Of a DNA stretch of 64,000 bases, positions 1-41,583 are shown piece by piece (the first letter of the stretch is position 1; each line of letters starts with the position of its first letter). The notes under the pieces are model-generated. The model was not told where the DNA came from. It did not search any database and saw only the letters and a program-made list of their open reading frames with translations. Source of the DNA: an uncultured Verrucomicrobiota bacterium (GTDB lineage Bacteria; Verrucomicrobiota; Kiritimatiellia; JAAZAB01); NCBI GenBank assembly GCA_964444425.1, contig CAYUHK010000005.1:4031-68030 (forward strand). Direction: 5' to 3'. Both the position numbers and the translations under genes were made by a program.

Positions 1-436
1 TTACCTGGCCGAACCCACCGAGGTTCAAACCGGCCAGCTGCTGGCGGCGGCCTGGCAGGCCAATAAAAAGGTTTGGGTGCCAGCCTATCATCCGCAGCAG
101 CATTATCGCTACGTTCCGCTAGAGCGCCAGACTGTGCTGACGGTCGGCCATTGGAACATCAACGAGCCTGCCAATCCACTCTGGCAAGATCCCCAGGCCA
201 TAGATCTGGCGCTAATCCCCGGCCTGGCTTTTGATAGCCAGGGCGGCCGGCTGGGGCATGGCAAAGGCTATTATGACAGTCTTTTAGCTGAAGCGGCTTT
301 ATTGCCAGCCCGCAAGATCGGCTTAGCTTTTGACTTTCAACTACAGGATAAGCTGCCGCTGGAAATCTGGGATGTCGCTATGGACATCATCGTGACGGAT
401 CAATCTGTGATCCGCTGTGAAATTGATAACAAATGA
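1..436 (+). CDS. 5-formyltetrahydrofolate cyclo-ligase (MTHFS family); 5' end lies outside the window
   Basis: The frame is open from position 2 through the stop at 434-436. The motif GGRLGHGKGYYD is typical of 5-FCL. Confidence 0.6.
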   Translation, partial: YLAEPTEVQTGQLLAAAWQANKKVWVPAYHPQQHYRYVPLERQTVLTVGHWNINEPANPLWQDPQAIDLALIPGLAFDSQGGRLGHGKGYYDSLLAEAALLPARKIGLAFDFQLQDKLPLEIWDVAMDIIVTDQSVIRCEIDNK

Positions 437-470
437 GCAATAGCCGAACGCGAGTTCGGAGGGGGTATTC

Positions 471-2024
471 ATGCTACAATGGTGGACTGGTGCATTGGTC
501 GTTATGCTGGCGGCCGGCTTGGGTTATTATATCCGCCTGATTATCGGCCGTTACGAAATCAAATCAGGCTCTTTGGAGGCCAAACGGCTATTGGAGGACG
601 CGCGGCGCGAATCTGAGGCTCTGCGCAAAGAAGCCGGTCTGCAGGCCAAAACCGAAGTGCTGCAAGCGCGCGACGTCTTTGAGAATGAGATTAAAGGGCG
701 CCGCCAGGAAGTGGTGGCCTTGGAAGCCCGGGCAGCGGAGCGCGAGCTGAACCTTGACCGCAAGCTGGCGATGCTGGATAAAAAAAATCTAGCCAGCGAA
801 CAAAAATTAGCTGAGCTGGAAAAACAAGCCAGCGAGCTGGCCCAACAGCGCAATGAATATAAAGAGCTGATTCAGGCTGAACGGGAGAAACTGCAACGCA
901 TTGCTGGAATGACCTTGGCGGAAGCGCGCCGCGCGCTGCTGCAGCAGACCGAGGAGGACGTGCGCGGCGAGAGCGGCATGTTGATTCGGCGCCTGCAGGA
1001 GGAGGCCAAACAAAACGCCGAGCGTGAATCCAAGAAGATCGTGGCCCTGGCCATTCAGCGCTGCGCGGCTGGCCATGTAAACGAAATAATGACCAGCACC
1101 GTCGCCCTGCCCAGCGAAGATATGAAGGGCCGCATCATTGGGCGTGAGGGCCGGAATATTCGAGCCCTCGAAGCAGCTACCGGTGTTGATCTATTGGTGG
1201 ACGACACCCCTGAGGCCGTGGTTATTTCCGCTTTTGACCCGCTGCGCCGTGAGATTGCCAAGCAGACCTTGGAACGTTTGATCGTGGATGGGCGCATCCA
1301 TCCGGCGCGCATTGAAGAAATCGTTGCCAAGGTTAAGGAAGAGCTTATCGAGGTGATCCGAGGTGCCGGCGAAGAAGCCATTTACGCGGCTGGCTTGCAA
1401 ACGATTGATCCGGAGCTGGTGCGCACGCTTGGGCGGCTAAAATATCGGAATAGCTATTCTCAGAATGTACTGATGCACTCCATCGAAGTGGCCCAGTTGA
1501 TGGGCAGCATGGCTGGCGAATTGGGATTGGATGCGGCTCTGGCCAAACGCATTGGTCTATTTCATGACATCGGCAAAGCGCTCGACAGCGAGGTCGAGGG
1601 CAATCACGCCATCATCGGCGCCGATTTACTGCGCCGGCACGGCGAATCTCAAATAGTGCTCAATGCCGTGGCCGCTCATCATGCCGACGTGGAGCCGGAA
1701 AGTATTTATGCCATCCTCGCAGCCGCCGGCGATGCCATTTCGGCCTCCCGGCCGGGCGCCCGCTCCGAAACCACCGCCATCTATGTCAAGCGCCTAGAAC
1801 AGCTTGAGGCGATCGCCGCGGGATTCAGCGGCGTGGAAAAAAGCTATGCCATCCAGGCCGGGCGCGAAGTGCGGATCATTGTCCAGCCGGATAAGGTGGA
1901 TGATGCCAGCGCCATGCATCTGGCGCGGGACATCAGCAAGAAGATTGAGCAAGAACTGCAGTATCCTGGCCAGATCAAGGTAACCGTGATTCGTGAAAAA
2001 CGCTGTATCGAATACGCTCGCTAA
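471..2024 (+). CDS. rny: Ribonuclease Y
   Basis: N-terminal TM helix (WWTGALVVMLAAGLGYY), a long coiled coil, a KH motif (GRIIGREGRNIRALE) and an HD domain (HSIEVAQLMGS...LFHDIGKA). A strong SD (GGAGGGGG) lies upstream. Confidence 0.9.
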   Translation: MLQWWTGALVVMLAAGLGYYIRLIIGRYEIKSGSLEAKRLLEDARRESEALRKEAGLQAKTEVLQARDVFENEIKGRRQEVVALEARAAERELNLDRKLAMLDKKNLASEQKLAELEKQASELAQQRNEYKELIQAEREKLQRIAGMTLAEARRALLQQTEEDVRGESGMLIRRLQEEAKQNAERESKKIVALAIQRCAAGHVNEIMTSTVALPSEDMKGRIIGREGRNIRALEAATGVDLLVDDTPEAVVISAFDPLRREIAKQTLERLIVDGRIHPARIEEIVAKVKEELIEVIRGAGEEAIYAAGLQTIDPELVRTLGRLKYRNSYSQNVLMHSIEVAQLMGSMAGELGLDAALAKRIGLFHDIGKALDSEVEGNHAIIGADLLRRHGESQIVLNAVAAHHADVEPESIYAILAAAGDAISASRPGARSETTAIYVKRLEQLEAIAAGFSGVEKSYAIQAGREVRIIVQPDKVDDASAMHLARDISKKIEQELQYPGQIKVTVIREKRCIEYAR

Positions 2025-7663: not shown

Positions 7664-9121
7664 ATGCTATGGTTATCCATATTGCTATCGCGCTGGCGGC
7701 GGCCGAGCGGCTATGGCGATGTCCTGCGCATCAGCCTGCCGCTGGTGATCAGCATGGGCTCGCACACAGTCATGCTTTTTACCGATCGCCTTTTTCTGGG
7801 GCGTTATTCACTGGATGCTATCGCGGCCGCCACGCCGGCCGGCATGCTGGCTTTCATGTTCCTGTGTTTCTTTATGGGTGTGATCGGATTCACCAATACC
7901 TTGGTGGCGCAATACAGTGGCGCCGGCGCGCCGCGACGCATTGGCAGCGCCATCTGGCAAGCGATTTATTTTACCTTCGGCGCCGGCTTAATTCTGGCCG
8001 CGCTGGCGCCAACCGGCCGGTTCATCTTTGGCCTGGCCGGACACCCTCCCGAGATACAGCAGCTGGAATATATTTATTTTACCATTCTGATGCTGGGATC
8101 GGTTTTTTCGTTACTACATGACAGCCTAGCTTGTTTCTACTCAGGCCGTGGGCTGACCAAGGTCATCATGATCATCAACCTGATCGGCATGACGGTGAAC
8201 GTTCCGCTCAACTACATGCTCATCAACGGCCTGGGAGCACTGCCGGCCTTGGGCATTGCTGGCGCGGCCATTGGCACGGTGATCAGCCATTTGGTGATGC
8301 TGATTGTTTTCAGCGCAGTGATATTCACCAATAAAAACGAGGCAGCCTATGGGGTGCGCACTCAGCGCGCCTTCGATCGCGGACTTTTCATGCGCCTATT
8401 GAAATTCGGCGGTCCAGCCGGGGTCCAGTTTTTCGTAGATACTTTTGCCTTCACTTTTTTTCTGTTGATGATTGGTCGCATCGGCCGCAATGAATTAGCC
8501 GCTACCAATTTGACGCTCGCCCTGGGCTCGTTAGCTTTCATGCCCATGATTGGGTTTTCCATTGCCGTAAGCACCCTGGTGGGCCAGGCCATCGGCCGCG
8601 GGCGACCACAAGATGGTGCTATCGCCACCTCCAGCGCGCTGCATTTAACCAGCCTCTACATGTGGAGTGTAGCCTTGATTTTCTTGCTGTTTCCAATGGA
8701 GTTGTGCGGAATCTTTCAAGCCCATCAAGATCCCGCTGAGTTTATGGCTGTGCGCGCCATGGCGGTAATTCTATTACGTTTCGTAGCCTTTTATAGTTTG
8801 CTGGATGTTTTCAACGTGATCTTTTCAGGCGCGCTTAAAGGTGCTGGCGATACCATCTTTATCGGATGGACGGTGGTGATCCTCACCATCAGCGTCATGG
8901 TGGCTCCGGTTTATCTAGCGGTGGTCAAGTTCCAGGCCGGAGTTTACATAGCCTGGATATTCGCTACGGCCTACGTATGCCTACTGGCGCTGGTGTTTTA
9001 CGGCCGCTATCGCTACGGCCATTGGAAAAACATACAGTTGATCGAACCACCCCGCTTGCTCAAAGACCTAGCTGGGCCCTTAGGCGGAGCGCCAGGTTCA
9101 GATATATTAAGTCCGTTTTGA
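7664..9121 (+). CDS. MATE-family multidrug/oligosaccharidyl-lipid exporter (12-TM membrane protein)
   Basis: 485 aa, highly hydrophobic, with two six-helix halves each showing the MATE-typical TM1 pattern. Precise family assignment from sequence alone is tentative. Confidence 0.65.
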   Translation: MLWLSILLSRWRRPSGYGDVLRISLPLVISMGSHTVMLFTDRLFLGRYSLDAIAAATPAGMLAFMFLCFFMGVIGFTNTLVAQYSGAGAPRRIGSAIWQAIYFTFGAGLILAALAPTGRFIFGLAGHPPEIQQLEYIYFTILMLGSVFSLLHDSLACFYSGRGLTKVIMIINLIGMTVNVPLNYMLINGLGALPALGIAGAAIGTVISHLVMLIVFSAVIFTNKNEAAYGVRTQRAFDRGLFMRLLKFGGPAGVQFFVDTFAFTFFLLMIGRIGRNELAATNLTLALGSLAFMPMIGFSIAVSTLVGQAIGRGRPQDGAIATSSALHLTSLYMWSVALIFLLFPMELCGIFQAHQDPAEFMAVRAMAVILLRFVAFYSLLDVFNVIFSGALKGAGDTIFIGWTVVILTISVMVAPVYLAVVKFQAGVYIAWIFATAYVCLLALVFYGRYRYGHWKNIQLIEPPRLLKDLAGPLGGAPGSDILSPF

Positions 9122-9206
9122 TCTAGCGCCAGCCAAGCCCTGCTTGCACAAACGCCGCCGAGCCAGGCCAGTTGTTAAAATCAGCCTTCTATGCTAAGTT
9201 GGCGCA

Positions 9207-12200
9207 GTGGTCTGCCAGGCAACAGGCTATCTTATTCAAGAAGCCATTATTATGAAAAAAACCGTTGTTATCGCGTTAGCATTGGGGCTGATTAACTTAA
9301 CCGGGCTATCTCAAGATAGCGAATGGGCTCAGGCATTTAAAAAGGCTTCAGCAAAACCCTGGACAAATCCAGTGCTGCCACTTACGGCTGATCCACGTCA
9401 AGAGCCCGACTTAAAGGCTTTTATAGAAACTGATGATATGGCTGTATTCTCAACGCCTTATTTCCCCGGCTGGATGATATCCTGCGGCCAACCCACCTTA
9501 ACGCTCTTTCATAAACTCCCACAGATCTGGCGGGTGGCTGGGCCGACTCACTTAGCCTTCTCCAGCAACGCCAAGATAGAGATCTTCAAGGCGCATGAAG
9601 CTATTCCTGCTGAAAAACTGGCGGCGATGGATAAAGCCTGGCTACTGGTCTGGTTTGCCGGAGCCAGAGGTTGGGAAAAATTCGACATGCCTATGCTGGT
9701 GGTGCTGCAACATCGCCCGTTAAGCATTGAGTTTAAAGATGATCTGCGCCTGAGCTTTCCGCAAAAAGCCGGCTTGGTTACGCTGCTCAACCTATATGGA
9801 TACTACAAGCCACCACAGGATAATCCATCAAGCCGACGCTGGGCGGATATCCAACAAATCACTGAATATGGAGAAATAAAAGAGGCCAAGACTGCTAACC
9901 TCAACGGGGCTTTTGGAATCCAGCTAGGACTGCTGGCTCCCATTAATGTGCGTCCCTACCAGTGGAGCGCTGGCCTGCCGGACCATGTGCACGAGCGCTG
10001 TGATTATTTCACCGCTTTATGCCGGGCGATCCCCTATTTCCTGCGCGATAGTTTCCAGGTGGATTTAAAGGAAAACGCCTTACGCCTGCGGAACAGCTTT
10101 TTGTATTTTATCACCAGCGACGATTGGAACACACCCGCCAAAAAACTCGCCCCTGTGTCGCCAACCTTTGCGCTCGGTGCGCGCTATGGTTTACTGTTAA
10201 AATTCAATGGCCAACTCTTTGATCCGATCTATCCCACTCCGCTGGGTCCATGGAGCGGGATCGCCGATACAGATCAATATGAAGTCTCCGTCAACCTTTT
10301 AAAATATCTTGCCGAAACCTATGTATTAGAGCTGAGCCAACAAACGAACGATCCAATTGTAAAAAAGGCCATTGAAACTCTAACTGTGACCGCGCCGGCG
10401 CTATGTAAGAGCACGGCCCCTTGGGGCAACAACCAACAGGCATACGCAAAACGCGATATGAAGTTAGAAACAGGCCCAGGCAAGGTGGGCAACTATGGCG
10501 CGATTTGGGTCGGCCTTACTTCTGATCGCACTAAAGGCTATGCGCTGCGCTTTGTCAAGCCGCAGGACCAAGCTCAGGCGCGCGAGAACATGCGCAATTA
10601 TTTTGAATATAGCTGTTTCACCGAAAGCGGCTACAAGGAGGAGCAACACGGCAACAAGACCTTTCTGTCCCGCGACAATGAAGATGGTTTATATGGCGGA
10701 TGTTTTGGCGATTCGGGTAAATTGATCATGAATCTGCTGGTCCCGGCTTGGCTCTACTCCTACCACGGCCAGGATTATGAATGGATTGCGCCTAAAGCAC
10801 CAATCATTGAAAAGTTAACTTGCACTCTGACCATGCTCGGCTGGCCACAGGCCGGCCGGCGATGCATCGCTGAACTGGGCGATGAAGCGCCGCCGGCGAT
10901 GGGCTATGCCCGCCTGATGTATGCAGCCCGTGATCAGGCGCGCTTTGCCTGGGGCGCCTACATGACGGTTATGGAATTATTACAGGCTCATCTAAAGTGT
11001 GGCCCGCTGGGCGATTATGCTCGCAAATTTCAGCCCTGGCATCGCTTTGAAATCATGGATGACACTGAGAATGCTACCGACTGCTGGGGTGCCGGCTATG
11101 GCTGGCAGATCGGTGGGCCAGGCCATGCAAAAATACAGCCGCGATTATCGCGTTCTTTCGATGTTTCCGCCGCTAAAGCTTTTGGATCAGCCCAGTGGAT
11201 CAGCCGTTGGCGCTGCGTGCATGATTTTGACTTCACGCGATTTTTGCGGGAAAACTGCCTTAATACGCCCGGCGGGCTAGCTTTTGAATTCGCTACGGAA
11301 ATGCAACGTGATTTTAAAACCTTGCTCGAGGAAGCTGGTCAAGGCCGTCGATATCTAGAGCTTCATCCGCAAGCGCACAATCCGGCTAACCTGCTTGCCA
11401 AGCAACGCCACTTTCTAGGAAAAAGTGTGGCACAAATCAATCAACAGCTTAACGGTTGGGAGCTTAGCTGGAACGATGTTTTCAAAGCCGCTTGGGCCTG
11501 GGAACCAACGCCATGGATTCATTGGGCTTTAGCCGATAATCCAAAATTTGAACGCATCTTGGACCAAGATGTCCTGCCCTGGACGCCTGGCCTCGATTCG
11601 GTTTATAAAGCAGATAACATAGAGCTCCTTGGCGCCACTAAACTGGCTATTAAAGATCCGGTTTTTGAGGAATTTATGCCGCCCTTTCAGTTTTTTGGAG
11701 AATGGCAGTCACCGGCTTATCCGAAAGGTTCGGGCTGGAGCGTTGGTTTGGTAACGGTTGACCCAAATCGCAAGATCGGCGCGGTTACCGCTGAAAATGG
11801 ATTCACTCGTTATATCTATACAAAAATAGCCACGCCGCCGGAACCCTATGATTTACCCCTAGAGGGCAAGCAATGGAAATTCTGCGCCGATAACTCGGCT
11901 CAGGGAATCAAGGCCGGCTGGTTCAAGCGCGAGTTCAATGACTCTCAATGGTTGAATATCGAGGTTCCCGGCCTATGGGAAAATCAAGCCCAGCTGCCGG
12001 AGAAAGCCTTACCTTTAAGCGCACTCTTTCCGGCCGAGATCCATGCGAATAATCCCCCGGTAGAAAATGGCGGCTGGTACGATGGAACTGCCTGGTATCG
12101 CATAAAATTCACACTGCCGGAGGAATTTAAAGGGCACAATATATTTTTCCATGCCGGGGCCATTGATGATTTTGATATTGTCTGGATCAATGGCATTAAG

Positions 12201-12395
12201 ATCGGGCAAACCGATTATCAAACCAATCCTCAAGACTTTTGGGAAGCTACTCGTATGTATCCCATTCCCTCAACAGCACTTAAATTTGGCGCGGAAAATG
12301 TGCTCGCGGTGATGGTTTGTGACAATAACGCCGGGGGCGGCTTTTCCGCTGGACCAGTACGGTTGATCGCTAAGCCTGAGCCTGGCAATCCATAA
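9207..12395 (+). CDS. Large secreted protein, paralog A of a three-member family; C-terminal GH2-N-like (galactose-binding-like) beta-sandwich; function unknown, putatively glycan-active
   Basis: A signal peptide starts at the MKKTVVIALALGLINLTGLS methionine (about 9252). The core shares ERCD..W..A.PYF, ELGDEAPP and GWQIGGP with 12513-15368. The C-terminal WYR..F.LP..F.G...F..GA.DD.D.VWINGIKIG..DYQTNPQDFWE matches the GH2 sugar-binding-domain pattern. Confidence 0.6.
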   Translation: MVCQATGYLIQEAIIMKKTVVIALALGLINLTGLSQDSEWAQAFKKASAKPWTNPVLPLTADPRQEPDLKAFIETDDMAVFSTPYFPGWMISCGQPTLTLFHKLPQIWRVAGPTHLAFSSNAKIEIFKAHEAIPAEKLAAMDKAWLLVWFAGARGWEKFDMPMLVVLQHRPLSIEFKDDLRLSFPQKAGLVTLLNLYGYYKPPQDNPSSRRWADIQQITEYGEIKEAKTANLNGAFGIQLGLLAPINVRPYQWSAGLPDHVHERCDYFTALCRAIPYFLRDSFQVDLKENALRLRNSFLYFITSDDWNTPAKKLAPVSPTFALGARYGLLLKFNGQLFDPIYPTPLGPWSGIADTDQYEVSVNLLKYLAETYVLELSQQTNDPIVKKAIETLTVTAPALCKSTAPWGNNQQAYAKRDMKLETGPGKVGNYGAIWVGLTSDRTKGYALRFVKPQDQAQARENMRNYFEYSCFTESGYKEEQHGNKTFLSRDNEDGLYGGCFGDSGKLIMNLLVPAWLYSYHGQDYEWIAPKAPIIEKLTCTLTMLGWPQAGRRCIAELGDEAPPAMGYARLMYAARDQARFAWGAYMTVMELLQAHLKCGPLGDYARKFQPWHRFEIMDDTENATDCWGAGYGWQIGGPGHAKIQPRLSRSFDVSAAKAFGSAQWISRWRCVHDFDFTRFLRENCLNTPGGLAFEFATEMQRDFKTLLEEAGQGRRYLELHPQAHNPANLLAKQRHFLGKSVAQINQQLNGWELSWNDVFKAAWAWEPTPWIHWALADNPKFERILDQDVLPWTPGLDSVYKADNIELLGATKLAIKDPVFEEFMPPFQFFGEWQSPAYPKGSGWSVGLVTVDPNRKIGAVTAENGFTRYIYTKIATPPEPYDLPLEGKQWKFCADNSAQGIKAGWFKREFNDSQWLNIEVPGLWENQAQLPEKALPLSALFPAEIHANNPPVENGGWYDGTAWYRIKFTLPEEFKGHNIFFHAGAIDDFDIVWINGIKIGQTDYQTNPQDFWEATRMYPIPSTALKFGAENVLAVMVCDNNAGGGFSAGPVRLIAKPEPGNP

Positions 12396-12512
12396 ACCAA
12401 GCATGGGGCTGGCAAGTCCGGCGGCGCTAGCTGTTTATGCCGGACTAACCTGGAGAGCCCCAGCTGATCTTATCGGCGCTGTTGGATTATGATTACCAGA
12501 GCTCAGCGTTCA

Positions 12513-15368
12513 CTATTCCGGCTGGGCGGCGAATTGCAAGTCTGGCAACGGCTGATCATCCAACCCGGTGATACAGAACTGCATAGGGAATCCCTTGCTA
12601 CCAATCGGTGATTCGCTCTTGACCAGCAAGCGATTCCAGCCCTGCTGCAGACGGCCCAAGCCGCTAATGCGATTAGCATAGAAGCCGCCATGAGTAGTGT
12701 GCTCGCTAATCACACGTTGCTCATTGATCCAACCTTGTGCTCCCCCGCTATGCCCCACCTTGAGATAAACATCCTGGCTCTCGGGTGACCAGACATACTG
12801 TTGGACATAAGCGATCTTGCGCCCGGCTGGCCACTCGGCTGCGCCAGCCTGTTGCAGTAAGTCCAGCTGGCGGCCGGCGCCCAGCGTGGCCGGCTGCCAG
12901 GATACTTTTCTGCCGATGCCATCGTATTGTGCCTGCGGCTGAAAGTCCTCTTCAGGCGGGTAAGCCATCAGGATCTCCGAGTCCCAGCGATTGGAGAATG
13001 GGCCAATGAACAATATCGGCGTATTTTCCTGTGCCTGGATGACCTCCTCAAGATTGGCTATTTCGCGCTTAGACGTAGTATCCACCCATGATTGATAACA
13101 GCCATAAGAAAGCCGTTGTCTACCACAGGCGCCAGCGATCCGTTCGCCAAAATCACCGCTGATACTTCCGAAATTACGCTGGGGAGCCTGCTTGCCGCCT
13201 TGAGGATCCTTAGGCATATTCCAGCCATGCCAGAATGGCCGCATCTTGATATTAGCGCCGACACCTTGAACCAGCGACATATGTACCCCCTGCAAGCCTA
13301 GAACATAGGGGCTGGGCTCCATGGTTTTAGGCACCAAGCGGTCATACTGCACCGGGCCAATGGCGCGTAAATAAGCATAACTCACGGCGATTTTGCCCGG
13401 GCCAAAGCTTCTATTATAATTGGTCATAGGCAACAGCTGCGATAGTTCTTCAAAAGAATCACCGGCTAAAAACGAGCGTAGCCGCGCCAAGCTGGGCAAA
13501 ATATGCCCTTCATCCAAAGTAAGTCCATAGCGATAGTTGCCCGAGCGAACTATGGTATTGGTATACACATCTAGTTCGGCACGCACCTCTTTTAAGAGAT
13601 GATCTCGATAGAAACGGCCGGTATCAGGGTCGTGGAACCGTACCCAACGATTTTCACTCTGGCCCGGATTAGTAAGGAGCGGCCCACCAATTTGCCAGCC
13701 CACTGTGCTGCCCCATAAATCGGTGAGATAGACATTCTCAGCTAACGGCTTTAAATCCCTGTGGGGCTGACGCTCATAAAAGTATTCTGCACCAACCTGC
13801 TTAATGTAATGATGAATCAATTCCCGCGCAAAGGTATAACAGCCCAAGAGATAGGCATCGAGATCGCCTACACCCCAGCCCAGTCTTGCGTAAGCCGAGC
13901 AAGGAGGCGCTTCATCGCCCAGCTCCGCAATGGCAACGCGGCCAAAGCCGGTCCAATGCATTTCCTCGGGCGTACAAAACAGCCGTTTGATGATATCCCA
14001 ACGGTCGCGGATCAGGCCCCAGTCTCCACTATACTGAGCATAGGCCCAGACCGGTTGTAAAACATTACTGGCGAACTTACCGGAATCGCCCAGGCCGCCC
14101 CAGGATCCGATCCCGGGCCCATCCAAAATCAACTGGCCGTGCCAGGGCGTATAATTCCAGGCGTTGAGCACATCATTATCCATATAAATCCGCATGCTAT
14201 GCTTCACCGTTTCTTTACGCGGTTCCTCTAGAAACGGAATAGCCTTGGCATACCAGACATCCGCAACGATATTCCAACAGAAGTTGCCGCGCTGACCATG
14301 ATCGTATTGGCAGCGCCAGTCTTGCGAAAAACGCCCTACGGCGGCATTGATCCAATTCAGCGCTTGAGCTTGGTTCGCATCTGGATCCTCTGGCTTATCC
14401 ATCCGTTCCAACTCATTGATATATTGCAAAACCTGCATACTTATTTCCACCCGGTTCGTATCATAAGCTCCAACATATGGTCCGAACCCAGTGAAATACT
14501 CCGGATCATGAATTTCTGCCGAAAGTTGCATAGGGAATCCCGGAACTTTCCAAGCCAACCCCAGCGCGGGCGAGAGCGGCGCAAAGCGTAAGGGGGCCGT
14601 TTGCCAGTCATCCGCGGTAATCAGCCAGTCATAATCGTAACGAAAATTGATTTCGTCGGTTTGCGGATTAACCGCAAACGACTCCTGAAAGCCAACCGGA
14701 TAAGCCCGCGCTATCCGCGCCCACAGATCGCAACGCTCAATGACGCTGGCCGGCACGCTCTGCTTCCATTCCCATGGTCGGATGCCGGAACTTGGCAATT
14801 GATGCTCGGCACAAAAATCTTTCTGTTCCTGCGGCAATTTATGCCAGCCGTAGAGCGGCATGCTAAAAACATGGCCAGTGTCTGAATCGGCAAAGGTGAT
14901 CTTCAGTCCAGCCTGAGTAAGTTCAATTTGCAAAGGCCGTTTTTCCAAGGCGATAAACCAGGGCGCATCGAAATTTTCCCAGCCTTGCGCGCCTTGAAAA
15001 CTGACCACCACCCAGGCGGCCGCCAGCTGGGCGCCATCCAAGGGCTGGTTGGGCAACACAGCTTGAGTCCCGGCGGCGGTTTTAACGATAAAAAATGTTG
15101 GCCCTTGCGCGCCATAATCCTCAAGATCGCCGAAGAACTGAATCGTTGGGGATTGCATACGCAGCAGTACCCCGGGCGAAAGCATCGAGCTATACAGCAT
15201 AACATCATGCTGTTCCGGCGCGGCCAGCTGTGCCAGCGGATCCGGCAGAGCGCCAGCTAAGTTGGATAGAGTGCCCCAGCCTGAGCTGGCGATCCCGTCA
15301 GCATAACCGAGCGTCCCAGTGGCAACTACAGCTGCCAATAGATATGCAAGCATGAAATCTCTTTTCAT
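12513..15368 (-). CDS. Large secreted protein, paralog B of the same family; function unknown
   Basis: Signal peptide MKRDFMLAYLLAAVVATGTLGYADG. It shares the IERCDLWARIARAYPVGF, AIAELGDEAPPCSAYARLGW and VGWQIGGP blocks with paralog A. Confidence 0.6.
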   Translation of the reverse strand: MKRDFMLAYLLAAVVATGTLGYADGIASSGWGTLSNLAGALPDPLAQLAAPEQHDVMLYSSMLSPGVLLRMQSPTIQFFGDLEDYGAQGPTFFIVKTAAGTQAVLPNQPLDGAQLAAAWVVVSFQGAQGWENFDAPWFIALEKRPLQIELTQAGLKITFADSDTGHVFSMPLYGWHKLPQEQKDFCAEHQLPSSGIRPWEWKQSVPASVIERCDLWARIARAYPVGFQESFAVNPQTDEINFRYDYDWLITADDWQTAPLRFAPLSPALGLAWKVPGFPMQLSAEIHDPEYFTGFGPYVGAYDTNRVEISMQVLQYINELERMDKPEDPDANQAQALNWINAAVGRFSQDWRCQYDHGQRGNFCWNIVADVWYAKAIPFLEEPRKETVKHSMRIYMDNDVLNAWNYTPWHGQLILDGPGIGSWGGLGDSGKFASNVLQPVWAYAQYSGDWGLIRDRWDIIKRLFCTPEEMHWTGFGRVAIAELGDEAPPCSAYARLGWGVGDLDAYLLGCYTFARELIHHYIKQVGAEYFYERQPHRDLKPLAENVYLTDLWGSTVGWQIGGPLLTNPGQSENRWVRFHDPDTGRFYRDHLLKEVRAELDVYTNTIVRSGNYRYGLTLDEGHILPSLARLRSFLAGDSFEELSQLLPMTNYNRSFGPGKIAVSYAYLRAIGPVQYDRLVPKTMEPSPYVLGLQGVHMSLVQGVGANIKMRPFWHGWNMPKDPQGGKQAPQRNFGSISGDFGERIAGACGRQRLSYGCYQSWVDTTSKREIANLEEVIQAQENTPILFIGPFSNRWDSEILMAYPPEEDFQPQAQYDGIGRKVSWQPATLGAGRQLDLLQQAGAAEWPAGRKIAYVQQYVWSPESQDVYLKVGHSGGAQGWINEQRVISEHTTHGGFYANRISGLGRLQQGWNRLLVKSESPIGSKGFPMQFCITGLDDQPLPDLQFAAQPE

Positions 15369-15802
15369 TGTTTTCCTCCATTGGCTGGCTCGGCCGCCTT
15401 ATGATATCTTATATGTAAGCTTTGAATTTCATTGCCTTGGATCGTAATAGTATTATCCGGGCTGATTTGACAGCTCAACGACTCCCAGAGAGCCGTCAGC
15501 TCGCCAGTCCAAGAGACGGTGCGGATCACAAATAGTTGTTTATTAGCATCCCAGTTGATATCAGCATGATCTAGTTTTTCTTGCACCATTGCTCCGGAAG
15601 CAGTTGTTCCATTCAATTGCACTCGCGGCTGCGGCGTAAAGCAACGTAGCTCCTCACCAGAGCGCAGGGTTATCTCCAGGGAACAGTAGGGTGAACCCTC
15701 GGGCACCCAAGCCTGCAATGGATTGCTTGCGTTAGCCGCGAGGTTGCCCGAGCCTGCCGCCAAGATGATCGCTCCGAGCCATAGCGCTTGCCATTGTTTC
15801 AT
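15365..15802 (-). CDS. Small secreted protein of unknown function (145 aa)
   Basis: Signal peptide MKQWQALWLGAIILAAGSGNLAANA. Its stop overlaps the start of paralog B by 4 nt (ATGA), which suggests translational coupling. Confidence 0.5.
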   Translation of the reverse strand: MKQWQALWLGAIILAAGSGNLAANASNPLQAWVPEGSPYCSLEITLRSGEELRCFTPQPRVQLNGTTASGAMVQEKLDHADINWDANKQLFVIRTVSWTGELTALWESLSCQISPDNTITIQGNEIQSLHIRYHKAAEPANGGKQ

Positions 15803-15825
15803 ATCCTGAGCTCCTTTTAAAAATC

Positions 15826-15842
15826 ATCGGGCGAAGCCCGAT
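15826..15842. promoter_or_regulatory. Perfect hairpin/palindrome ATCGGGC-GAA-GCCCGAT in the divergent promoter region, 24 nt upstream of the small-secreted-protein start codon
   Basis: Seen directly. It contains the GCGAAGC mini-hairpin core with a 7-bp stem and a GAA loop. Confidence 0.3.
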
Positions 15843-15994
15843 ATTGATTGCGCCGGATTCACTGCCATTAAAAAAATATTAAGCACCAGTGTATTCGCCA
15901 GCTGGGGAAAGGCAAACAAACAATAAAATTTTTTAATAAGAGGGATAAAAATCTTTACAAGCAGACTCTCTTGCTATAGCCTGCCTCGTAAACT

Positions 15995-18900
15995 ATGTAC
16001 CCCTTACCAACAATTTTAGGCTGCCAGGCCTTTAATGAAAGGTTCCGACTTATGCTTCGCCATTATAGATTCTGCTGGGTTATTGCAACGCTGATGATGG
16101 CTGCTTTTACGGCGGCAGCCGGGGAAGCCATTGCGCCGGATTTTAGCGCGGGCGAACCGAAATTTCCTCAAGCGGTCTACGGTTATCAGTACTCAAGCAC
16201 GGCACCGTGCGTATATCGGAGCCTTTTTAATGCCACCCCAGAAACAGAATGTGTCGCACTGCGTTTACAGACAACCGGGCCAGTGGTGGTCCGCGTGAAT
16301 GGGCGGCTGGTTTACGAGCATACGCCCGATCAAAAAGCCAAGTCAGGACCGGATGCTCCGGCCGAGATTCGCGACGTTGTTTTCGCCGAATGGATTCGGC
16401 CAGGCCAGAATGTTTTAGCCATAAGCGCCGCTATCAAGGGCTTGGCGTTGGAGGGCGCTATCATTGATCGAGCCGGCACCATCCAGCGTCTAAGTAGCAG
16501 CACCCAATGGCAAGTAAAAAAGTTCCCACCTTGGAGCTTTTTGCAACATGAGCAGGCCTTGCTCGACCCCGCCGCGGATATATCCGATTGGGTTCCCGTA
16601 AAAAATAGCGCTGACGCCGCATTGACGATCAGCGACCAAGAGCTCCAGACCTTGGCGGCGCCGGCCATTAAAGCGCTGCGCGCCGAGCTCGCGCGCAACC
16701 TGACTTGGCGGCTGAACTTAATTGTTCAGCGCGGTTGTATCATCGATGATTGGGAGCCATTTTATTTTGGGGATGCCAGTCGTTTGCCCGACGAAGCACT
16801 GCGCGTTACAACGGGCTTGCGGGAGAGCTTGCAAAAAATCATGGCTCAGCCGGAAATATCTCCTGCCATTCATAGCCTGGCTGATGGCACAGAGGCTTTA
16901 ACGCTGGCCATACGCCTGCTGGATGAGGCCGAGTGCCTGGCCAATACGGCGGAAGCTCTGCAGCGTAAGAATCCAATGGGCGCCAAGGCGGCCCAAGAGG
17001 CTACAGGCCAGTTTCAGGCCCTGGGCAAGCAAGCCATGACAGCGCTCTTGGCCGGCAACTATACGCAAGCACGGCAAATCTTAGCCGGTTCTCGTGAGCA
17101 GATCGACAGCGTGTTTAACACAGTGGAGGGCTCTTGGAAGAATGTCGTCAATCGGCTCAATCAATCCGATGCTAATCGCTTTGGTTGGTGCGACATAACC
17201 CATCTGCTCGACAATGACATCAACCGTTGGGGCTTGCGCATCGGGGCAACGGAGATCTCTTGGAAAATGAATTTGAACGGCTTATGGCGGTTTAAACTGG
17301 ATCCGCCGAATACGGGTCTTCAGGAGACGTATCATGATCCAGCCTATAATGTTCTATGGTCTGAAATCGTCGTGCCGGGAGATTGGGAACATCAGGGCTT
17401 TCAAGACCTGAATCCTGACATCAAGAAGACCAACCCCTTCCCAGGCATCAACGATAAGCTAGAGGACGCTCCTTATAATGGCTGGGCCTGGTATCGGCGG
17501 ACTCTGCATATTCCGCAGGAATGGGCTGGCTACGATCTTGAGCTTGGCATCGGCCGTGTAGATGATTACGACTGGGCTTATTTTAACGGCCAGGAAATAG
17601 GCCATACCGCCTACGACACTAATCCTCAAGATTTTTGGGCTGTTGAACGAAAATATAAAATCCCTAAAAAACTGGTTAAGTTCGGCGGCCTTAATTTGAT
17701 CGCTGTTCGCGTATATGACTGTCGCGATAAAGGCGGCATTATGGGCGATGTAGAGATTCGCTGCCCCGCTTTACAGGCCGCATATGAACAACGCCCCCCT
17801 AGTCAAACGCAAGCCGCCACTATCTGGAACAGCCCGCTTTCCGTTGGCGCGCTGGTAACAGCGGGCGAGGATCCGCTGCAGCTATGGGGTTGGAATGAAC
17901 GTGGCGTGCCAGGGCCTCAAGCAATCGCCTGGCCTGGCCAAGATGCTTTGGAATATAAACCCCTCACCAAAACCGCTACGCTATATGATGCGCAAACCGA
18001 TGGAGATCTGCCGGAGAACTGGGCCTTGCTCTGGCCCGCCGCGACGGTCGTCGAACAACCGATCTTGATGGTTTTTCTTGATAAGCCGCAAACCATTGCG
18101 GCGAACGTAGGCGAGGAAGGCACCTCCCAGATCAGCTGCACCTTCGGCAAGAAGGCGGCCCAAGTCGTATTGGCGCGCCCTTTCCGCGCAGAACTGAATT
18201 TTGGCGAGACGATTCCCACGCAGATCGTTGAGCGTTGTCGCTTCTGGTCCCAAGCCTTACTGGCCTATCCGATAGCCTTCACGGAGATTAATGAGCGCAG
18301 CGCCAATGAGCCTGAGATGCTCGATATAACCGATATCTATACCTATAAAATATTGAAGGACGCTTGGAATACCAAGCCGCTCAAAGTTGCTTTGCTGCCG
18401 CCTTTTTTCAGCTATGCCGTTGAGCAAAAGTTTCCAGGTTTAGCCTTCCCTAGCAACGCGCAAACTCTGGGATGCTCTCTGGGCAAGTATGGAACGCTGA
18501 AAGGCGTTCTCGACAGCGACCGAGTCAGCTACCGGGTGCCGCTTGATGAGATACCGGCTTTTGGTGGTATGACCGCTTTTGCCTTTTCACCTGTTGATAT
18601 CGGTGCTGGGAATGTCGCGGAGGTACGCGATGTAGCCCTCTGTGGCGGCAACAGTTGGCGCCCACAAACAGCTGTAGGACCAGGCCCTCAACTGCAGTTT
18701 TGCTTGGATGCCGGGCAAGAACTCGGTGTCAATATCCTGCACAATACTTCAGCTGACCATGCCGGTGGAGATCATAAGATTCCGGCGTTATACGAAAGCC
18801 TGGCCCAGGCCTATCACGACCTGCCCTTTGCGGCGATCTCCTATGATCCGTTTAACGAGCCGGCTGGCCTACGCGCCGAAGCCTATAACCCACTGGTCCG

Positions 18901-19399
18901 GCAAACTATCGCGGCTATCCGTAAACATGACCGGCGCCATTTGATCTATATTGAGTCGCCGGAAAGCTTTGCCTCGGTTATGATGCTCAATAAAATCGAG
19001 CCGATGGATGACCCTCTGCTGGTTTACAGCTTTCATGATTACGACTATCGGCTCTATGAATTTTGGCCGAATGGTCTTTACTCAATCCGCACGGTATTGG
19101 AAGGCTGGTTCAAGGCCTTTGAGCTCATGGTTGAGCGCCACGCGCGAATACATATCGGCGAGTGGGGTGGTTACGAACAGCGCCCTGAAAAATGGGTTTT
19201 TACGCGGCCGCATACCATTGCCCAAACGCTTGATATGTGCCGCATCTTCCAGCACTTCAATATACATTTCCATTACTATTCCAATCGCGGCATCACCCGA
19301 CAGGCCGCTGACGGGGCCGCGGAACAAAGCTATGTGCAGGAAGGGTTTCGGCGCTTCTTTGCCCGCGGGCACTGGAATTATTATCAAAAACAAAAATAA
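15995..19399 (+). CDS. Large secreted multi-domain glycoside hydrolase, paralog C: GH2-N-like beta-sandwich (middle), family core, C-terminal GH5 catalytic module
   Basis: The likely start is the MLRHYRFCWVIATLMMAAFTAAAG methionine (about 16052). The core block IVERCRFWSQALLAYPIAF is homologous to paralogs A and B. A GH2-N-like WAWYRRTLHIPQEW...NPQDFWAVE...NLIAVRVYD lies at about 17.3-17.8 kb. The GH5 hallmarks are NEP (Glu codon 18857-18859) and IGEWGG (Glu codon 19160-19162), with FHDYDY between them. Confidence 0.7.
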   Translation: MYPLPTILGCQAFNERFRLMLRHYRFCWVIATLMMAAFTAAAGEAIAPDFSAGEPKFPQAVYGYQYSSTAPCVYRSLFNATPETECVALRLQTTGPVVVRVNGRLVYEHTPDQKAKSGPDAPAEIRDVVFAEWIRPGQNVLAISAAIKGLALEGAIIDRAGTIQRLSSSTQWQVKKFPPWSFLQHEQALLDPAADISDWVPVKNSADAALTISDQELQTLAAPAIKALRAELARNLTWRLNLIVQRGCIIDDWEPFYFGDASRLPDEALRVTTGLRESLQKIMAQPEISPAIHSLADGTEALTLAIRLLDEAECLANTAEALQRKNPMGAKAAQEATGQFQALGKQAMTALLAGNYTQARQILAGSREQIDSVFNTVEGSWKNVVNRLNQSDANRFGWCDITHLLDNDINRWGLRIGATEISWKMNLNGLWRFKLDPPNTGLQETYHDPAYNVLWSEIVVPGDWEHQGFQDLNPDIKKTNPFPGINDKLEDAPYNGWAWYRRTLHIPQEWAGYDLELGIGRVDDYDWAYFNGQEIGHTAYDTNPQDFWAVERKYKIPKKLVKFGGLNLIAVRVYDCRDKGGIMGDVEIRCPALQAAYEQRPPSQTQAATIWNSPLSVGALVTAGEDPLQLWGWNERGVPGPQAIAWPGQDALEYKPLTKTATLYDAQTDGDLPENWALLWPAATVVEQPILMVFLDKPQTIAANVGEEGTSQISCTFGKKAAQVVLARPFRAELNFGETIPTQIVERCRFWSQALLAYPIAFTEINERSANEPEMLDITDIYTYKILKDAWNTKPLKVALLPPFFSYAVEQKFPGLAFPSNAQTLGCSLGKYGTLKGVLDSDRVSYRVPLDEIPAFGGMTAFAFSPVDIGAGNVAEVRDVALCGGNSWRPQTAVGPGPQLQFCLDAGQELGVNILHNTSADHAGGDHKIPALYESLAQAYHDLPFAAISYDPFNEPAGLRAEAYNPLVRQTIAAIRKHDRRHLIYIESPESFASVMMLNKIEPMDDPLLVYSFHDYDYRLYEFWPNGLYSIRTVLEGWFKAFELMVERHARIHIGEWGGYEQRPEKWVFTRPHTIAQTLDMCRIFQHFNIHFHYYSNRGITRQAADGAAEQSYVQEGFRRFFARGHWNYYQKQK

Positions 19400-19402
19400 A
19401 GT

Positions 19403-20596
19403 CTACAGCAAGGCCGATTGGATTTCATCCAGGGAAACGCCCAATTTAGCCAGGGCGATTTTATCCAAATCGGCTGGCTGGCCCTCAAAATGAAATGTCT
19501 GTTGCCTATGCTCGGCGCTAGCGCCCGGCTGCAAAGCTAGGGCTGGCGAAGATGTCTCCAGCTCGTAAAATGATCCCTGCGGCAGAGCACCATCATTATA
19601 AACATTGATCGCGTCGCCGCAGTAAGGCTCTGGCTGAATAGCCCACATTGAATTCACATAGCGCGGTAAGCGATCCAGGTATGCGCCGGCTGCTTCGGGA
19701 CGACTATATTGAACGATCGTCAAGATACGGCGAGCAGCATCGTAACTGCCCAGCGCCCCAGTAGCACGCCAAGGAGACACGCCGATCTTGCTGCGATGAC
19801 AACCATCGCCCTTAAAAAATATAGTCCGCGCGGCGATCTTAAGCCGGTCGGCAGGAACCTTGCCGAAATAAACATCGTTCACAATCGGGCCCAATTGCTG
19901 CTCTAGGCCTGGCTTAAATGGGATAGCGATCGTCGTTTGCGGCGAGGTTGGAAACATGCCCAGCACCCAGATGGAAAGCAGGCCGCTCTCCTCCGCCCAA
20001 GCTTGCGCGCCGGTGTTGGTCAAGCGATTATTCGATTCGAAGGCCACCAGCGTCAAGGCGGCTGGCAGCTTAAGGCCCAGAGCATCAAGGACTAATTCGC
20101 GCTCAAGGAGCCTGATTTCTCGATCGACGCGCAGCTGAAACACGCTGCCGGAATAGTTTTCCAAGCGCATCTCTTTCTTTAACAGGGCCTGACTGCTAGT
20201 TTTAGAAACCAACTCGAATGATTCAGTATCGATCGGCGCAGGCGTAAACCAATGCTCCAGATCAAAGGGTGCTCCTGATTTGAAAAATATGGAGAATTGT
20301 CCACCCTCCGGACCAATCCAGAACCGGTCTTCGCCCCCATAGGGATTATTATGGCGCAGCGGTTTAGCCGACGCGATCAGCTGATGATTGATCCAGCCAT
20401 AGCTAGGGCCCTGCGGCTCTCGGGCCGTGCTGGTCATAACGCGCCCCTGCAATGCCGGTACAACGACCACTTGACTTTGACCAGCCGCGCCAGATAGCAC
20501 TATCACCGGCACATGCTGTTCCAAAAACTCTCGATCCTGCTCGAAGGTCGGTTGAATCTTTCTTGCTATCATAGGTAGTGCCTCCTCTTGCCGCAC
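19403..20596 (-). CDS. Hypothetical cytoplasmic protein (397 aa), no recognised domain
   Basis: Long ORF with coding-like composition and no signal peptide. Its stop (19403-19405) lies 3 nt from the stop of the GH5 gene on the other strand. Confidence 0.5.
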   Translation of the reverse strand: MRQEEALPMIARKIQPTFEQDREFLEQHVPVIVLSGAAGQSQVVVVPALQGRVMTSTAREPQGPSYGWINHQLIASAKPLRHNNPYGGEDRFWIGPEGGQFSIFFKSGAPFDLEHWFTPAPIDTESFELVSKTSSQALLKKEMRLENYSGSVFQLRVDREIRLLERELVLDALGLKLPAALTLVAFESNNRLTNTGAQAWAEESGLLSIWVLGMFPTSPQTTIAIPFKPGLEQQLGPIVNDVYFGKVPADRLKIAARTIFFKGDGCHRSKIGVSPWRATGALGSYDAARRILTIVQYSRPEAAGAYLDRLPRYVNSMWAIQPEPYCGDAINVYNDGALPQGSFYELETSSPALALQPGASAEHRQQTFHFEGQPADLDKIALAKLGVSLDEIQSALL

Positions 20597-20979
20597 CCAT
20601 AGCGCTAAAGGCTATGGCCGGGTTTTCTTCATGCCACTTAGATAATTTCAGCCCTGCTTTATACTGCTGGCGCCAAACAATATAAAGTTTTTTATGCAGC
20701 AGCCGCAAAAGAGCTCACCCTGGCATTGCATGATTTAACAATCAACCCCACCCTCTGCTCAGATCCCCAGCCGACAAGCCAGGGCTGGCTAGCGCTGGCC
20801 TTAGAGAAGACAGCGCTGCATGAGTGGCTGGCGCCGAGTGGAGCGGCGGGCAATGCGGCCCTAGCATCTCTATGCCAGTCAAGATAGATAGCAGCGCGCT
20901 GCTTGAAGATGGATCGTATACTAATCTCTGGCTATCGACTGCAATGCTACCAGCTTGCAGCAGCTGCTAATTTAATGCA

Positions 20980-22143: not shown

Positions 22144-22779
22144 TTACTGTTTGGCGTTCGGACGGCGGCGGCGATGCCGGCCGAACAATTCTAACTGCGG
22201 AGTTTTAATAAGATCGTAGTTTTTTAAAATACGCAGTGTTTGCAGCAGGTCGGATTTATCATAATTCTTTTTACTGTCCAGGCGATTGATCAGCTCGAGC
22301 AGTAAGGTTCGAAAGAGCAGCACGCCATCAACACCTTTAGCTCTCAATAGCCGGATGGTTTCGGCTCTGAGTTTCTCCGAGGCCGGCAGCTGAGGAAAGC
22401 ACAATATCTTGGCCAAGGGCGCGCCATCCAGACGCCGGGACACCAGGCGCACTGATTCCTCGCTGGCGAAACGCAGCATTTCAGGAATTTGATTCAGGAT
22501 GCTGGGATAGAAACGCTCGGTGTGCCAGCCATAGACTCCTACCACGGCCCGCGGAATATACTTAAGATCCGCCGTGGTCCAGATGGTAGCCTGCGGAAGC
22601 TTCAGCTCAGTGATAAGAGGGTTGACCACGATTAGATCAATTTCTTCTTCCAGCCGTTTACGGCGACCAGATGGCGAGTATTTACGCGGCTGACTAACCA
22701 AGTAGCCCAATGTTTCAAAATATTCCCTGACGATCCATTCGCTGACCGATGACATGATGGCCCCCTTAAGGTCGCTCAA
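22144..22779 (-). CDS. Hypothetical protein (211 aa) with a possible PD-(D/E)xK nuclease-like core
   Basis: The EEEIDLIVVNPLITELK segment (D-x9-ELK) is compatible with a PD-(D/E)xK signature. It sits 63 nt upstream of dprA on the same strand. The fold assignment is inference only. Confidence 0.45.
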   Translation of the reverse strand: MSDLKGAIMSSVSEWIVREYFETLGYLVSQPRKYSPSGRRKRLEEEIDLIVVNPLITELKLPQATIWTTADLKYIPRAVVGVYGWHTERFYPSILNQIPEMLRFASEESVRLVSRRLDGAPLAKILCFPQLPASEKLRAETIRLLRAKGVDGVLLFRTLLLELINRLDSKKNYDKSDLLQTLRILKNYDLIKTPQLELFGRHRRRRPNAKQ

Positions 22780-41365: not shown

Positions 41366-41583
41366 GAGGGGCTCCTTATTCTTCTATTATATTATATTTA
41401 TAATTATTTATATTAGTGTCTGATGATAAGTTTAACATCTTTAAAAAAGCCTGTCATCCTTGCTTAAAAAGAATAAAAGAATTTAATAACTACGAACGGC
41501 GCCTGTTAATAAATCGATAGGTCAGAATGCTGAGCGCTCCGCAATGTTAGTTATATTCTTGATACATTAAAGTTATGAACATT
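41366..41583. other. Very AT-rich dnaA-dnaN intergenic spacer; possible second origin element or DNA-unwinding element
   Basis: 218 bp with long A/T runs (ttattcttctattatattatatttataattatttatatt). Confidence 0.3.

Follow-up and report, generated by a model that had tools for sequence, protein, structure and literature searches.

Three neighbouring genes, here called A, B and C, lie in a 64,000-nucleotide stretch of DNA from an uncultured Verrucomicrobiota bacterium (hereafter the window), and on balance we consider it likely that A and B encode secreted glycoside hydrolases of GH81 architecture, that C encodes a GH5 enzyme carrying the same N-terminal domain, and that all three probably share a glycan target. 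We regard the A/B family as probably a new, GH81-related family of glycoside hydrolases. Because the predicted structure of A/B is nearest to that of GH81 beta-1,3-glucanases, and because C joins the family N-domain to a GH5 domain, the group is probably an undescribed sugar-cleaving family rather than a new fold.

All three reading frames were recovered with the lengths and positions given in the initial annotation (Table 1), and the motifs quoted there are present: the ERC block (A263, B211, C746) and the DDW/DAW-x-T-x-P-L block (A305, B253, C789) in all three proteins, and ELGDEAPP (A556, B482) and GWQIGGP (A632, B557) in A and B. The probable start codons of A and C are ATG at 9252 (M16) and ATG at 16052 (M20), giving the products of 1047 aa (signal peptide included) and 1115 aa that are implied by the public gene-call product lengths for the same genome. 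Signal peptides, judged by eye, can be assigned to all three proteins as first proposed, provided that A starts at M16 and C at M20. A promoter and terminator scan of positions 9000-20800 yielded matches at chance level only.

A and B align at 28% identity across ~700 aa (BLASTP E 7e-70, 744 columns), and the family core HMM matches A over ORF residues 62-794 (E 1e-201). The long core had been attributed to all three proteins, but C shares only a ~270-aa N-terminal domain, with B 30-313 aligning to C 582-850. This relationship was detected by comparing the family profile with C (hhalign probability 97.8%, E 1.3e-12) and by BLASTP of the ERC block between C and B (E 3e-10) and between C and A (E 5e-6), and the order of secondary structure elements is the same in the N-domains of C and B. 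The N-terminal beta-sandwich is the sole part common to A, B and C, and the ~700-aa core is found only in A and B. A is no nearer to B (28%) than to family members of other phyla (29-31%), and both have nearer relatives elsewhere, including a full-length relative of A (P0076) at 48% identity and relatives of B at 50-60%. These identities speak against the local triplication, or expanding accessory family, suggested by the initial annotation, and indicate that A and B are old subfamilies that now lie side by side.

Table 1. Genes, domains and candidate catalytic residues of the A/B/C cluster, with positions in the window
Feature	Position	Strand	Residues and basis
Gene A	9207..12395	+	1062-aa ORF; A-type member of GH81-like family
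A, N-terminal beta-sandwich	9408..10331	+	~68-375; ERCDYF (263), DDWNTP (305); BLASTP to B N-domain
A, (alpha/alpha)6-type barrel region	10344..11588	+	~380-794; core HMM match
A, candidate residue D502	10710-10712	+	Motif match
A, candidate residues E556-L-G-D559-E560	10872-10886	+	Motif match
A, C-terminal GH2_N-like sugar-binding beta-sandwich	11859..12356	+	885-1050; Pfam PF02837
Gene B	12513..15368	-	951 aa; B-type member of GH81-like family; signal peptide 1-22
B, C-terminal beta-sandwich domains, PA14 / GH2_N-like	12528..13349	-	674-947
B, (alpha/alpha)6-type helical barrel	13359..14378	-	331-670; AF2 model, GH81 structural matches
B, candidate base motif E482-L-G-D485-E486	13911-13925	-	hhalign to GH81 ESSSE, conservation
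B, candidate acid D428	14085-14087	-	Topology, conservation
B, N-terminal beta-sandwich	14403..15221	-	50-322; AF2 secondary structure, hhalign vs C
Small secreted partner ORF	15365..15802	-	145 aa; stop overlaps B start by 4 nt (ATGA)
Gene C	15995..19399	+	1134-aa ORF; multidomain GH5 enzyme with family N-domain
C, GH2_N-like beta-sandwich	17270..17734	+	426-580; Pfam PF02837, BLASTP to A
C, family N-terminal beta-sandwich	17738..18544	+	582-850; ERCRFW (746), DAWNTKPL (789); hhalign
C, GH5 catalytic domain	18557..19396	+	855-1134; Pfam PF00150, PDB GH5 matches
C, putative acid/base E955 in NEP	18857-18859	+	GH5 motif
C, putative nucleophile E1056 in GEWG	19160-19162	+	GH5 motif

The description of the core as lacking a named family held in Pfam, NCBIfam and PDB sequence searches with A, B, C and the family profile, none of which matched the A/B core; the profile retrieved nothing from the PDB sequences at E <= 10. 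Likewise, the GH81 Pfam models (Glyco_hydro_81 PF03639 and Glyco_hydro81C PF17652) matched neither A nor B, nor any of 30 family members even at E <= 10. The AF2 model of B (pLDDT 91, pTM 0.91) had a single strong structural match, to GH81, a family of endo-beta-1,3-glucanases such as BhGH81 (5t4a), RmLam81A (4k35/5xbz) and CtLam81A (6fop). As modelled, A/B resemble GH81 in fold and in domain order: the N-terminal beta-sandwich is followed by a linker and then by an (alpha/alpha)6 barrel. The ERC block, a helix plus hairpin, aligns collinearly with the latter half of domain A of GH81.

Family and GH81 share ~10% identity, and profile comparison in local mode with an enlarged family alignment was needed to relate them; global mode gave a meaningless alignment, and hhalign found nothing when the family profile was compared with only one GH81 sequence. 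Aligning the 70-sequence family core with a 53-sequence GH81 alignment gave a score of 41.6 over 377 collinear columns (P 6e-4, probability 28%), compared with 15.2 for a reversed control and 16-20 for eight block-shuffled controls. By the model, the A/B core has GH81-type architecture and is neither a new fold nor a new kind of system. What was initially put forward as a new carbohydrate-active or binding module is very probably carbohydrate-active, given the GH81-like fold, the CBM-type additions on relatives and the link to a GH5 fusion, but its novelty does not extend to its architecture. Unlike GH81, A/B carry additional C-terminal PA14 / GH2_N-like domains, and their family belongs to uncultured PVC, Armatimonadota and Acidobacteriota lineages, whereas GH81 is a family of fungi and Firmicutes.

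The best-supported stretch of the alignment places the family HW..AELGDEA opposite GH81 HSW..NQESSSEA, in which the first Glu of ESSSE is the residue mutated to alanine in the CtLam81A E515A structure 6fop. The second carboxylate in the family is mainly D485, one residue before E486, which aligns with the second GH81 Glu. Among 70 cores, R495 is invariant (70/70), E482 is retained in 62, position 485 is acidic in 62 and position 428 is D or E in 64, whereas E486 is kept in just 47, and several distant members have lost E482 or D428. GH81 PDB chains do carry the signature NDHHFHYGYF of that family, but neither A nor B nor the family consensus has it; WGD(A/S)GKF stands in its place. In topology, where the order is Asp, helix, helix, loop, Glu motif and helix, D428 takes the position that the NDHH Asp has in GH81; because the signature is missing and D428 falls ~6 residues from the GH81 Asp in the alignment, its role as acid is proposed from topology only. 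By this scheme, the cleft between beta-sandwich and barrel would be where A and B cut a polysaccharide, through single displacement (inverting), with E482-x-G-D485-(E486) of B and E556, D559 and E560 of A as the base system and D428 of B (D502 of A) as the probable acid. The C-terminal PA14 / GH2_N-like beta-sandwiches would serve as glycan-binding modules.

C would be a separate enzyme, a retaining GH5 (beta/alpha)8 hydrolase with E955 as acid/base and E1056 as nucleophile, which may have gained the family N-terminal beta-sandwich and a GH2_N-like module. Both the GH5 domain of C and the GH2_N-like domains of A and C, named in the initial annotation, gave Pfam matches above cutoff: Cellulase PF00150 at residues 926-1064 of C (42.4 bits vs 23.5), and PF02837 at residues 885-1009 of A (35 bits vs 28) and 426-547 of C (44.6 bits vs 28). 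The GH5 motifs RPQ, NEP, HxY and GE(W/F)G are intact in 4/4 C-type proteins (HDYDY lies at residue 1014 of C), and the nearest solved chains are the Thermotoga maritima endoglucanase 3amc and Endoglucanase H 7vt5, from which C is very divergent (PDB E ~3e-4). Unlike in other GH5 proteins, this domain is preceded by the GH81-like N-domain, the GH2_N-like module and a ~180-aa helical segment. We found the arrangement of N-domain and GH5 in only four proteins (that of the window, P0035/P0188, P0036 and L181), of which the L181 protein apparently has no GH2_N-like module. With 19 aligned sequences as input, the AF2 model of C reached a pLDDT of 54 overall and 25-50 in the GH5 region, low there because the alignment is shallow. 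The GH2_N-like domains of A and C are 37% identical (BLASTP E 3e-24), and the C-terminal beta-sandwich of A has PDB matches among GH2 and sialate esterase beta-sandwiches. In contrast to GH2 enzymes, A and C hold accessory beta-sandwich modules only; their GH2-type matches are limited to PF02837 and PF13364, and the GH2 catalytic TIM barrel (PF02836) and Ig-like domain (PF00703) are absent from both. As the A/B core would be inverting and the GH5 domain of C retaining, the same glycan is probably attacked with complementary chemistries.

At E<=1e-30, the A/B family comprises 336 clusters at 50% identity, and every relative is named "hypothetical protein" at its source. All of the 78 genome loci that we recovered come from MAGs, assigned to Verrucomicrobiota, Planctomycetota, Armatimonadota, Acidobacteriota, Chloroflexota and Lentisphaerae and, in two cases, Thermoprotei. 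Relatives carry F5/8-type-C, BetaGal_ABD2, GH2_N and PA14 modules, and the majority of family members are stand-alone, with no second catalytic domain. Our literature search on GH81-like proteins, DUF6786 and DUF6785/DUF6784 found nothing relevant.

Other interpretations account for parts of these results. A and B could be highly divergent members of GH81 proper, that is, endo-beta-1,3-glucanases or laminarinases of PVC-type bacteria with C as a companion GH5 beta-glucanase, as GH81 is the sole strong structural match and the E-x-x-(D)E motif lies opposite the GH81 glutamates; we think this unlikely. A second possibility, of similarly low probability in our judgement, is that the A/B core puts its GH81-like scaffold to another chemistry, such as that of a polysaccharide lyase, transglycosylase or epimerase with an acidic or sulfated glycan as substrate. 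It is rather improbable that A and B, on a degenerate glycosidase scaffold, are pseudo-enzymes that bind glycans or serve as surface proteins and catalyse nothing, leaving C as the only catalytic protein. The lost GH81 acid motif, the distant relatives without the conserved carboxylates, and an N-domain that, like a binding module, can be joined to a different catalytic domain are in keeping with such a loss, but the conservation of E482, D485, D428, R495 and W472 across members from seven phylum-level groups is typical of an active site, and a stand-alone architecture in most members argues against a purely auxiliary role. Least probable by far is the original proposal of a long novel core of no known fold, present in all three proteins and recently triplicated in place: its shared motifs are real and match no sequence family, but C has just ~270 aa in common with the others, the fold is GH81-like, and A and B are old paralogues with nearer relatives elsewhere.

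Returning to the hydrolase interpretation, a fuller version can be offered tentatively. The A/B core may represent a new glycoside hydrolase family in a clan with GH81, with a specificity other than beta-1,3-glucan and a distribution largely restricted to uncultured Verrucomicrobiota, Planctomycetota, Armatimonadota and Acidobacteriota; the N-domain may be a portable, cleft-forming specificity module borne by both inverting (alpha/alpha)6 and retaining GH5 (beta/alpha)8 barrels, and the small secreted partner may be dedicated to B-type proteins. If A/B are active, the carbohydrate-enzyme catalogue would gain a new family and, probably, a GH81 clan, and hundreds of "hypothetical protein" clusters from abundant uncultured polysaccharide degraders in soil, sediment, hot-spring and aquatic samples would gain a function. 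One N-domain on (alpha/alpha)6 and GH5 barrels would exemplify a substrate-cleft module swapped between unrelated catalytic scaffolds. No long-standing question depends on the A/B/C family.

The partner ORF, which does not appear in the initial annotation, has a signal-peptide-like N-terminus and no match in a Pfam search. A word-based search retrieved only the partner itself; a local HMM found homologues in L005, L008, L131, L133 and L167, each upstream of a B-type gene, and this arrangement occurs in at least six loci in total, with record titles naming Planctomycetota, Armatimonadia, Candidatus Solibacter (Acidobacteriota) and Verrucomicrobiota. B would be co-transcribed, and probably translationally coupled, with this conserved secreted protein. 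A C-type gene adjoins an A/B-type gene in three genomes (window, L210 and L181).

The window flanks consist of housekeeping genes, and the neighbourhoods of family genes vary among the recovered loci and do not point to a substrate. Neither the flanks nor the annotated recurrent neighbour clusters contain SusC/SusD-like genes, for which co-occurrence had been suggested as a check, and the A/B/C cluster is not a PUL. Sulfatase linkage, suggested likewise, is sporadic, with two sulfatases in L005 and an FGE-sulfatase gene in L008, and does not recur among neighbours. DUF6786 was considered as part of the system and dropped for now, because the other family members have no DUF6786 gene nearby. 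A seemingly recurrent neighbour cluster of 573 aa looks like antisense ORFs that shadow the family gene, given that it lies on the strand opposite to that gene.

The ~700-aa core of A and B, two of the three large secreted-type proteins encoded side by side in the window, lies outside the families that can be named from sequence, as the initial annotation had proposed. Pfam and NCBIfam recognized only the GH2_N-like tail in A, a Pfam scan of B gave no match, and neither phmmer with B nor a profile of the 30-sequence alignment A1 retrieved anything from the PDB sequences, even at E <= 10. Similarly, GH81 models matched none of 30 family members at E <= 10. The idea of a novel module did not hold at the level of fold: the AlphaFold2 (AF2) model of B, built from alignment A1 (mean pLDDT 91, pTM 0.91), resembles GH81, and the top nine Foldseek matches in the PDB were GH81 endo-beta-1,3-glucanases (BhGH81, RmLam81A, and CtLam81A; E 5.9e-10 to 4.8e-8), aligned over about 680–750 columns at 9%–12% identity. 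The core thus differs from GH81 in sequence but shares its architecture, which makes it a candidate for a new GH family within a GH81-like clan. This candidate newness was judged against Pfam, NCBIfam, and PDB, and the core may instead be a very recent CAZy family with neither a solved structure nor a Pfam model. On the reading with the best support, A and B are secreted enzymes from an undescribed family with remote homology to GH81. Such a find would be of use in carbohydrate enzymology and in the annotation of uncultured PVC, Armatimonadota, and Acidobacteriota genomes, and is not a categorically new system.

Sequences of GH81 were gathered with the hallmark NDHHFHYGYF, confirmed in solved GH81 chains, giving one gene from a viral contig (its protein matches CtLam81A at E 7e-103) and 120 metagenomic loci. 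Local hhalign of a 70-sequence family core alignment against a 53-sequence GH81 core alignment produced one collinear alignment of 377 columns (B 171-603 / GH81 186-614; score 41.6, P 6e-4, probability 28%), compared with scores of 15.2 for the reversed GH81 alignment and 16.4–19.9 for eight block-shuffled versions, and we consider this sequence signal weak but real. Its best-supported stretch pairs 'HWTG..FGRVAIAELGDEAPP' of B with 'HSWA..GNNQESSSEA' of GH81, which aligns E482 with the first Glu of ESSSE, where the 6fop chain (CtLam81A E515A mutant) carries alanine, and E486 with the second. The catalytic residues of GH81 are taken to be the glutamates of ESSSE and the Asp of NDHH. D428, within WGD(A/S)GKF where a barrel helix begins, two helices ahead of the Glu motif, occupies the same topological slot as the NDHH Asp, from which it is about 6 residues away in a low-confidence stretch of the alignment, so we infer its role as the acid. 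A and B are probably inverting glycoside hydrolases, predicted to use E482 with D485/E486, and D428.

Features of the cluster, domains of B and C, and conserved family residues (B numbering)
Feature	Position	Strand	Description
A	9207-12395	+	1062-aa ORF
B	12513-15368	-	951-aa ORF
Partner ORF	15365-15802	-	145 aa; not listed in the initial annotation
C	15995-19399	+	1134-aa ORF
DUF6786 protein	19403-20596	-	Pfam E 1.6e-147
B beta-sandwich	residues about 50-322		includes 'ERC' helix (207-220) and DDW turn; AF2 model
B all-helical barrel region	residues about 331-670		AF2 model
B C-terminal beta-sandwiches	residues 674-947		AF2 model
C signal peptide	N-terminus		first in order; by eye
C beta region	between signal peptide and helical segment		poorly modelled
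C all-helical segment	residues ~214-392 (window 16634-17170)		~230-380 at pLDDT 80-94
C GH2_N-like domain	residues 426-580
C family N-domain	residues 582-850
C GH5 domain	residues 855-1134
D428			Asp in 60/70, Glu in 4/70 cores
W472			Trp in 66/70 cores
E482			Glu in 62/70 cores
Position 485			Asp in 57/70, Glu in 5/70 cores
E486			Glu in 47/70 cores
R495			Arg in 70/70 cores

A long core had been ascribed to all three proteins, which holds for A and B (28% identity over 744 columns, E 7e-70, A 16-748 / B 1-646) and not for C. A profile built from A, B, and 28 homologues gave a 254-column alignment to C (B 30-313 / C 582-850; probability 97.8%, E 1.3e-12) and matched nothing else in it, so what A, B, and C have in common is the ~270-aa N-terminal beta-sandwich (N-domain), and the alignment extents confine the longer core to A and B. 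The 'ERC' block of C matches both A (E 5e-6) and B (E 3e-10), and the N-domain has the same order of secondary structure in the AF2 models of C and B, the GH5 part of C being poorly modelled. The motifs quoted in the initial annotation were all found in the ORFs at verified positions, and Pfam matched GH2_N in both A and C, and GH5 in the latter, above curated cutoffs; the GH2_N-like domains (C 431-582, A 890-1046) are 37% identical (E 3e-24). The helical segment of C had no Pfam match. C is best read as a GH5 enzyme with an N-terminal beta-sandwich borrowed from the A/B family. Such C-type proteins (N-domain plus GH5) are rare, with three clusters in a 5.8-billion-sequence search plus one from locus L181, and RPQ, NEP (E955), HDYDY, and GEWG (E1056) are kept in 4/4. 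Among named homologues, the one nearest to C (66% identity) comes from a Lentisphaerae MAG; the organism behind the window is itself probably related to Lentisphaerota. Locus L209 holds the closest C homologue, P0188 (cluster representative P0035, 66% identical to C); there the C-type gene stands alone, directly followed by a phage-integrase-family gene (13365-14423), which hints at mobility of C-type genes.

The three ORFs are present with the lengths first reported. For contigs of this genome, publicly available gene calls list a 1047-aa product for A and a 1115-aa product for C, which places the starts at M16 (ATG 9252) and M20 (ATG 16052), respectively. With these starts, A, B, and C all open, by eye, with the signal-peptide-like segment expected of them (basic residues, then a hydrophobic stretch); residues 2-18 of B form a lone helix in the AF2 model.

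Local triplication is contradicted by the divergence of the proteins. A is 28% identical to B versus 29%–31% to members of other phyla, and is 48% identical over its full length, GH2_N-like tail included, to a relative of its own, P0076, while B has relatives at 50%–60% identity, one named as a Planctomycetota MAG protein. Because closer relatives of both exist elsewhere, A and B represent old subfamilies rather than recent local duplicates. Two family ORFs occur in eight other loci, some of which may be split genes, and a C-type gene adjoins an A/B-type gene in the window, L210, and L181; the L210 pair comprises P0036 (C-type) and a 952-aa family member (HMM E 2e-179). On either side of that pair in the metagenomic contig (2779-9503 and 18361-21666), three more large proteins of 1270, 965, and 1102 aa are almost devoid of Pfam annotation and may be further unrecognized glycan-active proteins.

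Directly upstream of B, the partner ORF ends in a TGA that overlaps the B ATG by 4 nt (ATGA); its N-terminus is signal-peptide-like by eye, and it has no Pfam match. An HMM of this ORF and those upstream of two B orthologues (L005, a Planctomycetota MAG, and L008) detected homologues in that position, directly upstream of B-type genes, in three further MAGs, by record title Armatimonadia (L133), Candidatus Solibacter (L167), and Verrucomicrobiota (L131), and a weak partial match in L136. None was detected in L137, L138, L139, or L210, or beside shorter (~700–800 aa) family members. The conserved parts are a signal-like segment at the N-terminus, an R-D/S-G turn, and a segment of the form W-T-G-E/L-L...L-W. 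The ORF product probably serves B-type enzymes as a dedicated partner, and A, B, C, and this small protein would likely all act on one glycan.

A word-indexed search with B retrieved only 33 relatives, all unnamed or 'hypothetical protein' and free of Pfam domains. Exhaustive profile searching of 1.84 billion cluster representatives gave 336 matches at E <= 1e-30, 3514 at E <= 1e-10, and 10046 at E <= 1e-3, the last set probably including matches to the C-terminal beta-sandwich alone. The domains added in 39 large distant members were of carbohydrate-binding type only (Pfam): F5/8 type C in 10, BetaGal_ABD2 in 6, GH2_N in 3, along with PA14 and a PL4 CBM-like domain. The 78 family loci kept from a species-representative genome collection, 78/78 of them MAGs, span Verrucomicrobiota, Planctomycetota/Phycisphaerae, Armatimonadota, Acidobacteriota, Anaerolineales, Lentisphaerae, and two Thermoprotei MAGs. 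The B-type members in these archaeal MAGs (L137, L138; about 1097 aa, 38% identity to B) suggest inter-domain transfer or mis-binning.

Clustering of 704 ORFs around family genes revealed variable neighborhoods among the 78 loci. GFO/IDH/MocA oxidoreductases were near family genes in 12 loci (several directly adjacent), an ABC ATPase and a class-III aminotransferase in 7 each, and a ~650-aa DUF6785+DUF6784 protein in 6 (L161, L166, and L193, where it directly adjoins the family gene, and L143, L203, and L205). Association with sulfatases was occasional: L005 has two sulfatases as well as a 3-keto-disaccharide hydrolase-like and a xylose-isomerase-like TIM gene, and in L008 an FGE-sulfatase gene adjoins the family gene; sulfatases were not among the most recurrent neighbors. 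The L005 and L008 neighbors fit glycan catabolism in general, without pointing to a substrate.

In the window, the cluster is flanked by housekeeping genes: RNase Y, XseA, Dxs, a TlyA-like methyltransferase, NAD kinase, and a MATE transporter upstream, and the DUF6786 protein, DprA, and a ChlI-like ATPase downstream. No SusC/SusD pair occurs in these flanks. The DUF6786 gene is convergent with C across a gap of only 3 nt; no signal peptide is visible by eye in its product, for which PDB sequences gave no match, and no DUF6786 gene was found near other family members. DUF6784, DUF6785, and DUF6786 are consecutive Pfam numbers, which, speculatively, hints at a common system. Between dprA and the ChlI-like ATPase gene sits a 211-aa ORF (22144-22779, -) with no Pfam match. 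Farther downstream, dnaN (40271-41365, -) and dnaA (41584-42969, -), the latter followed by a 475-bp intergenic region, lie within a low-GC stretch (40271-43444; GC 0.41 versus about 0.53 elsewhere), and cumulative GC skew reaches its minimum at about 38–40 kb; the chromosomal replication origin is probably located here, about 25 kb from the cluster.
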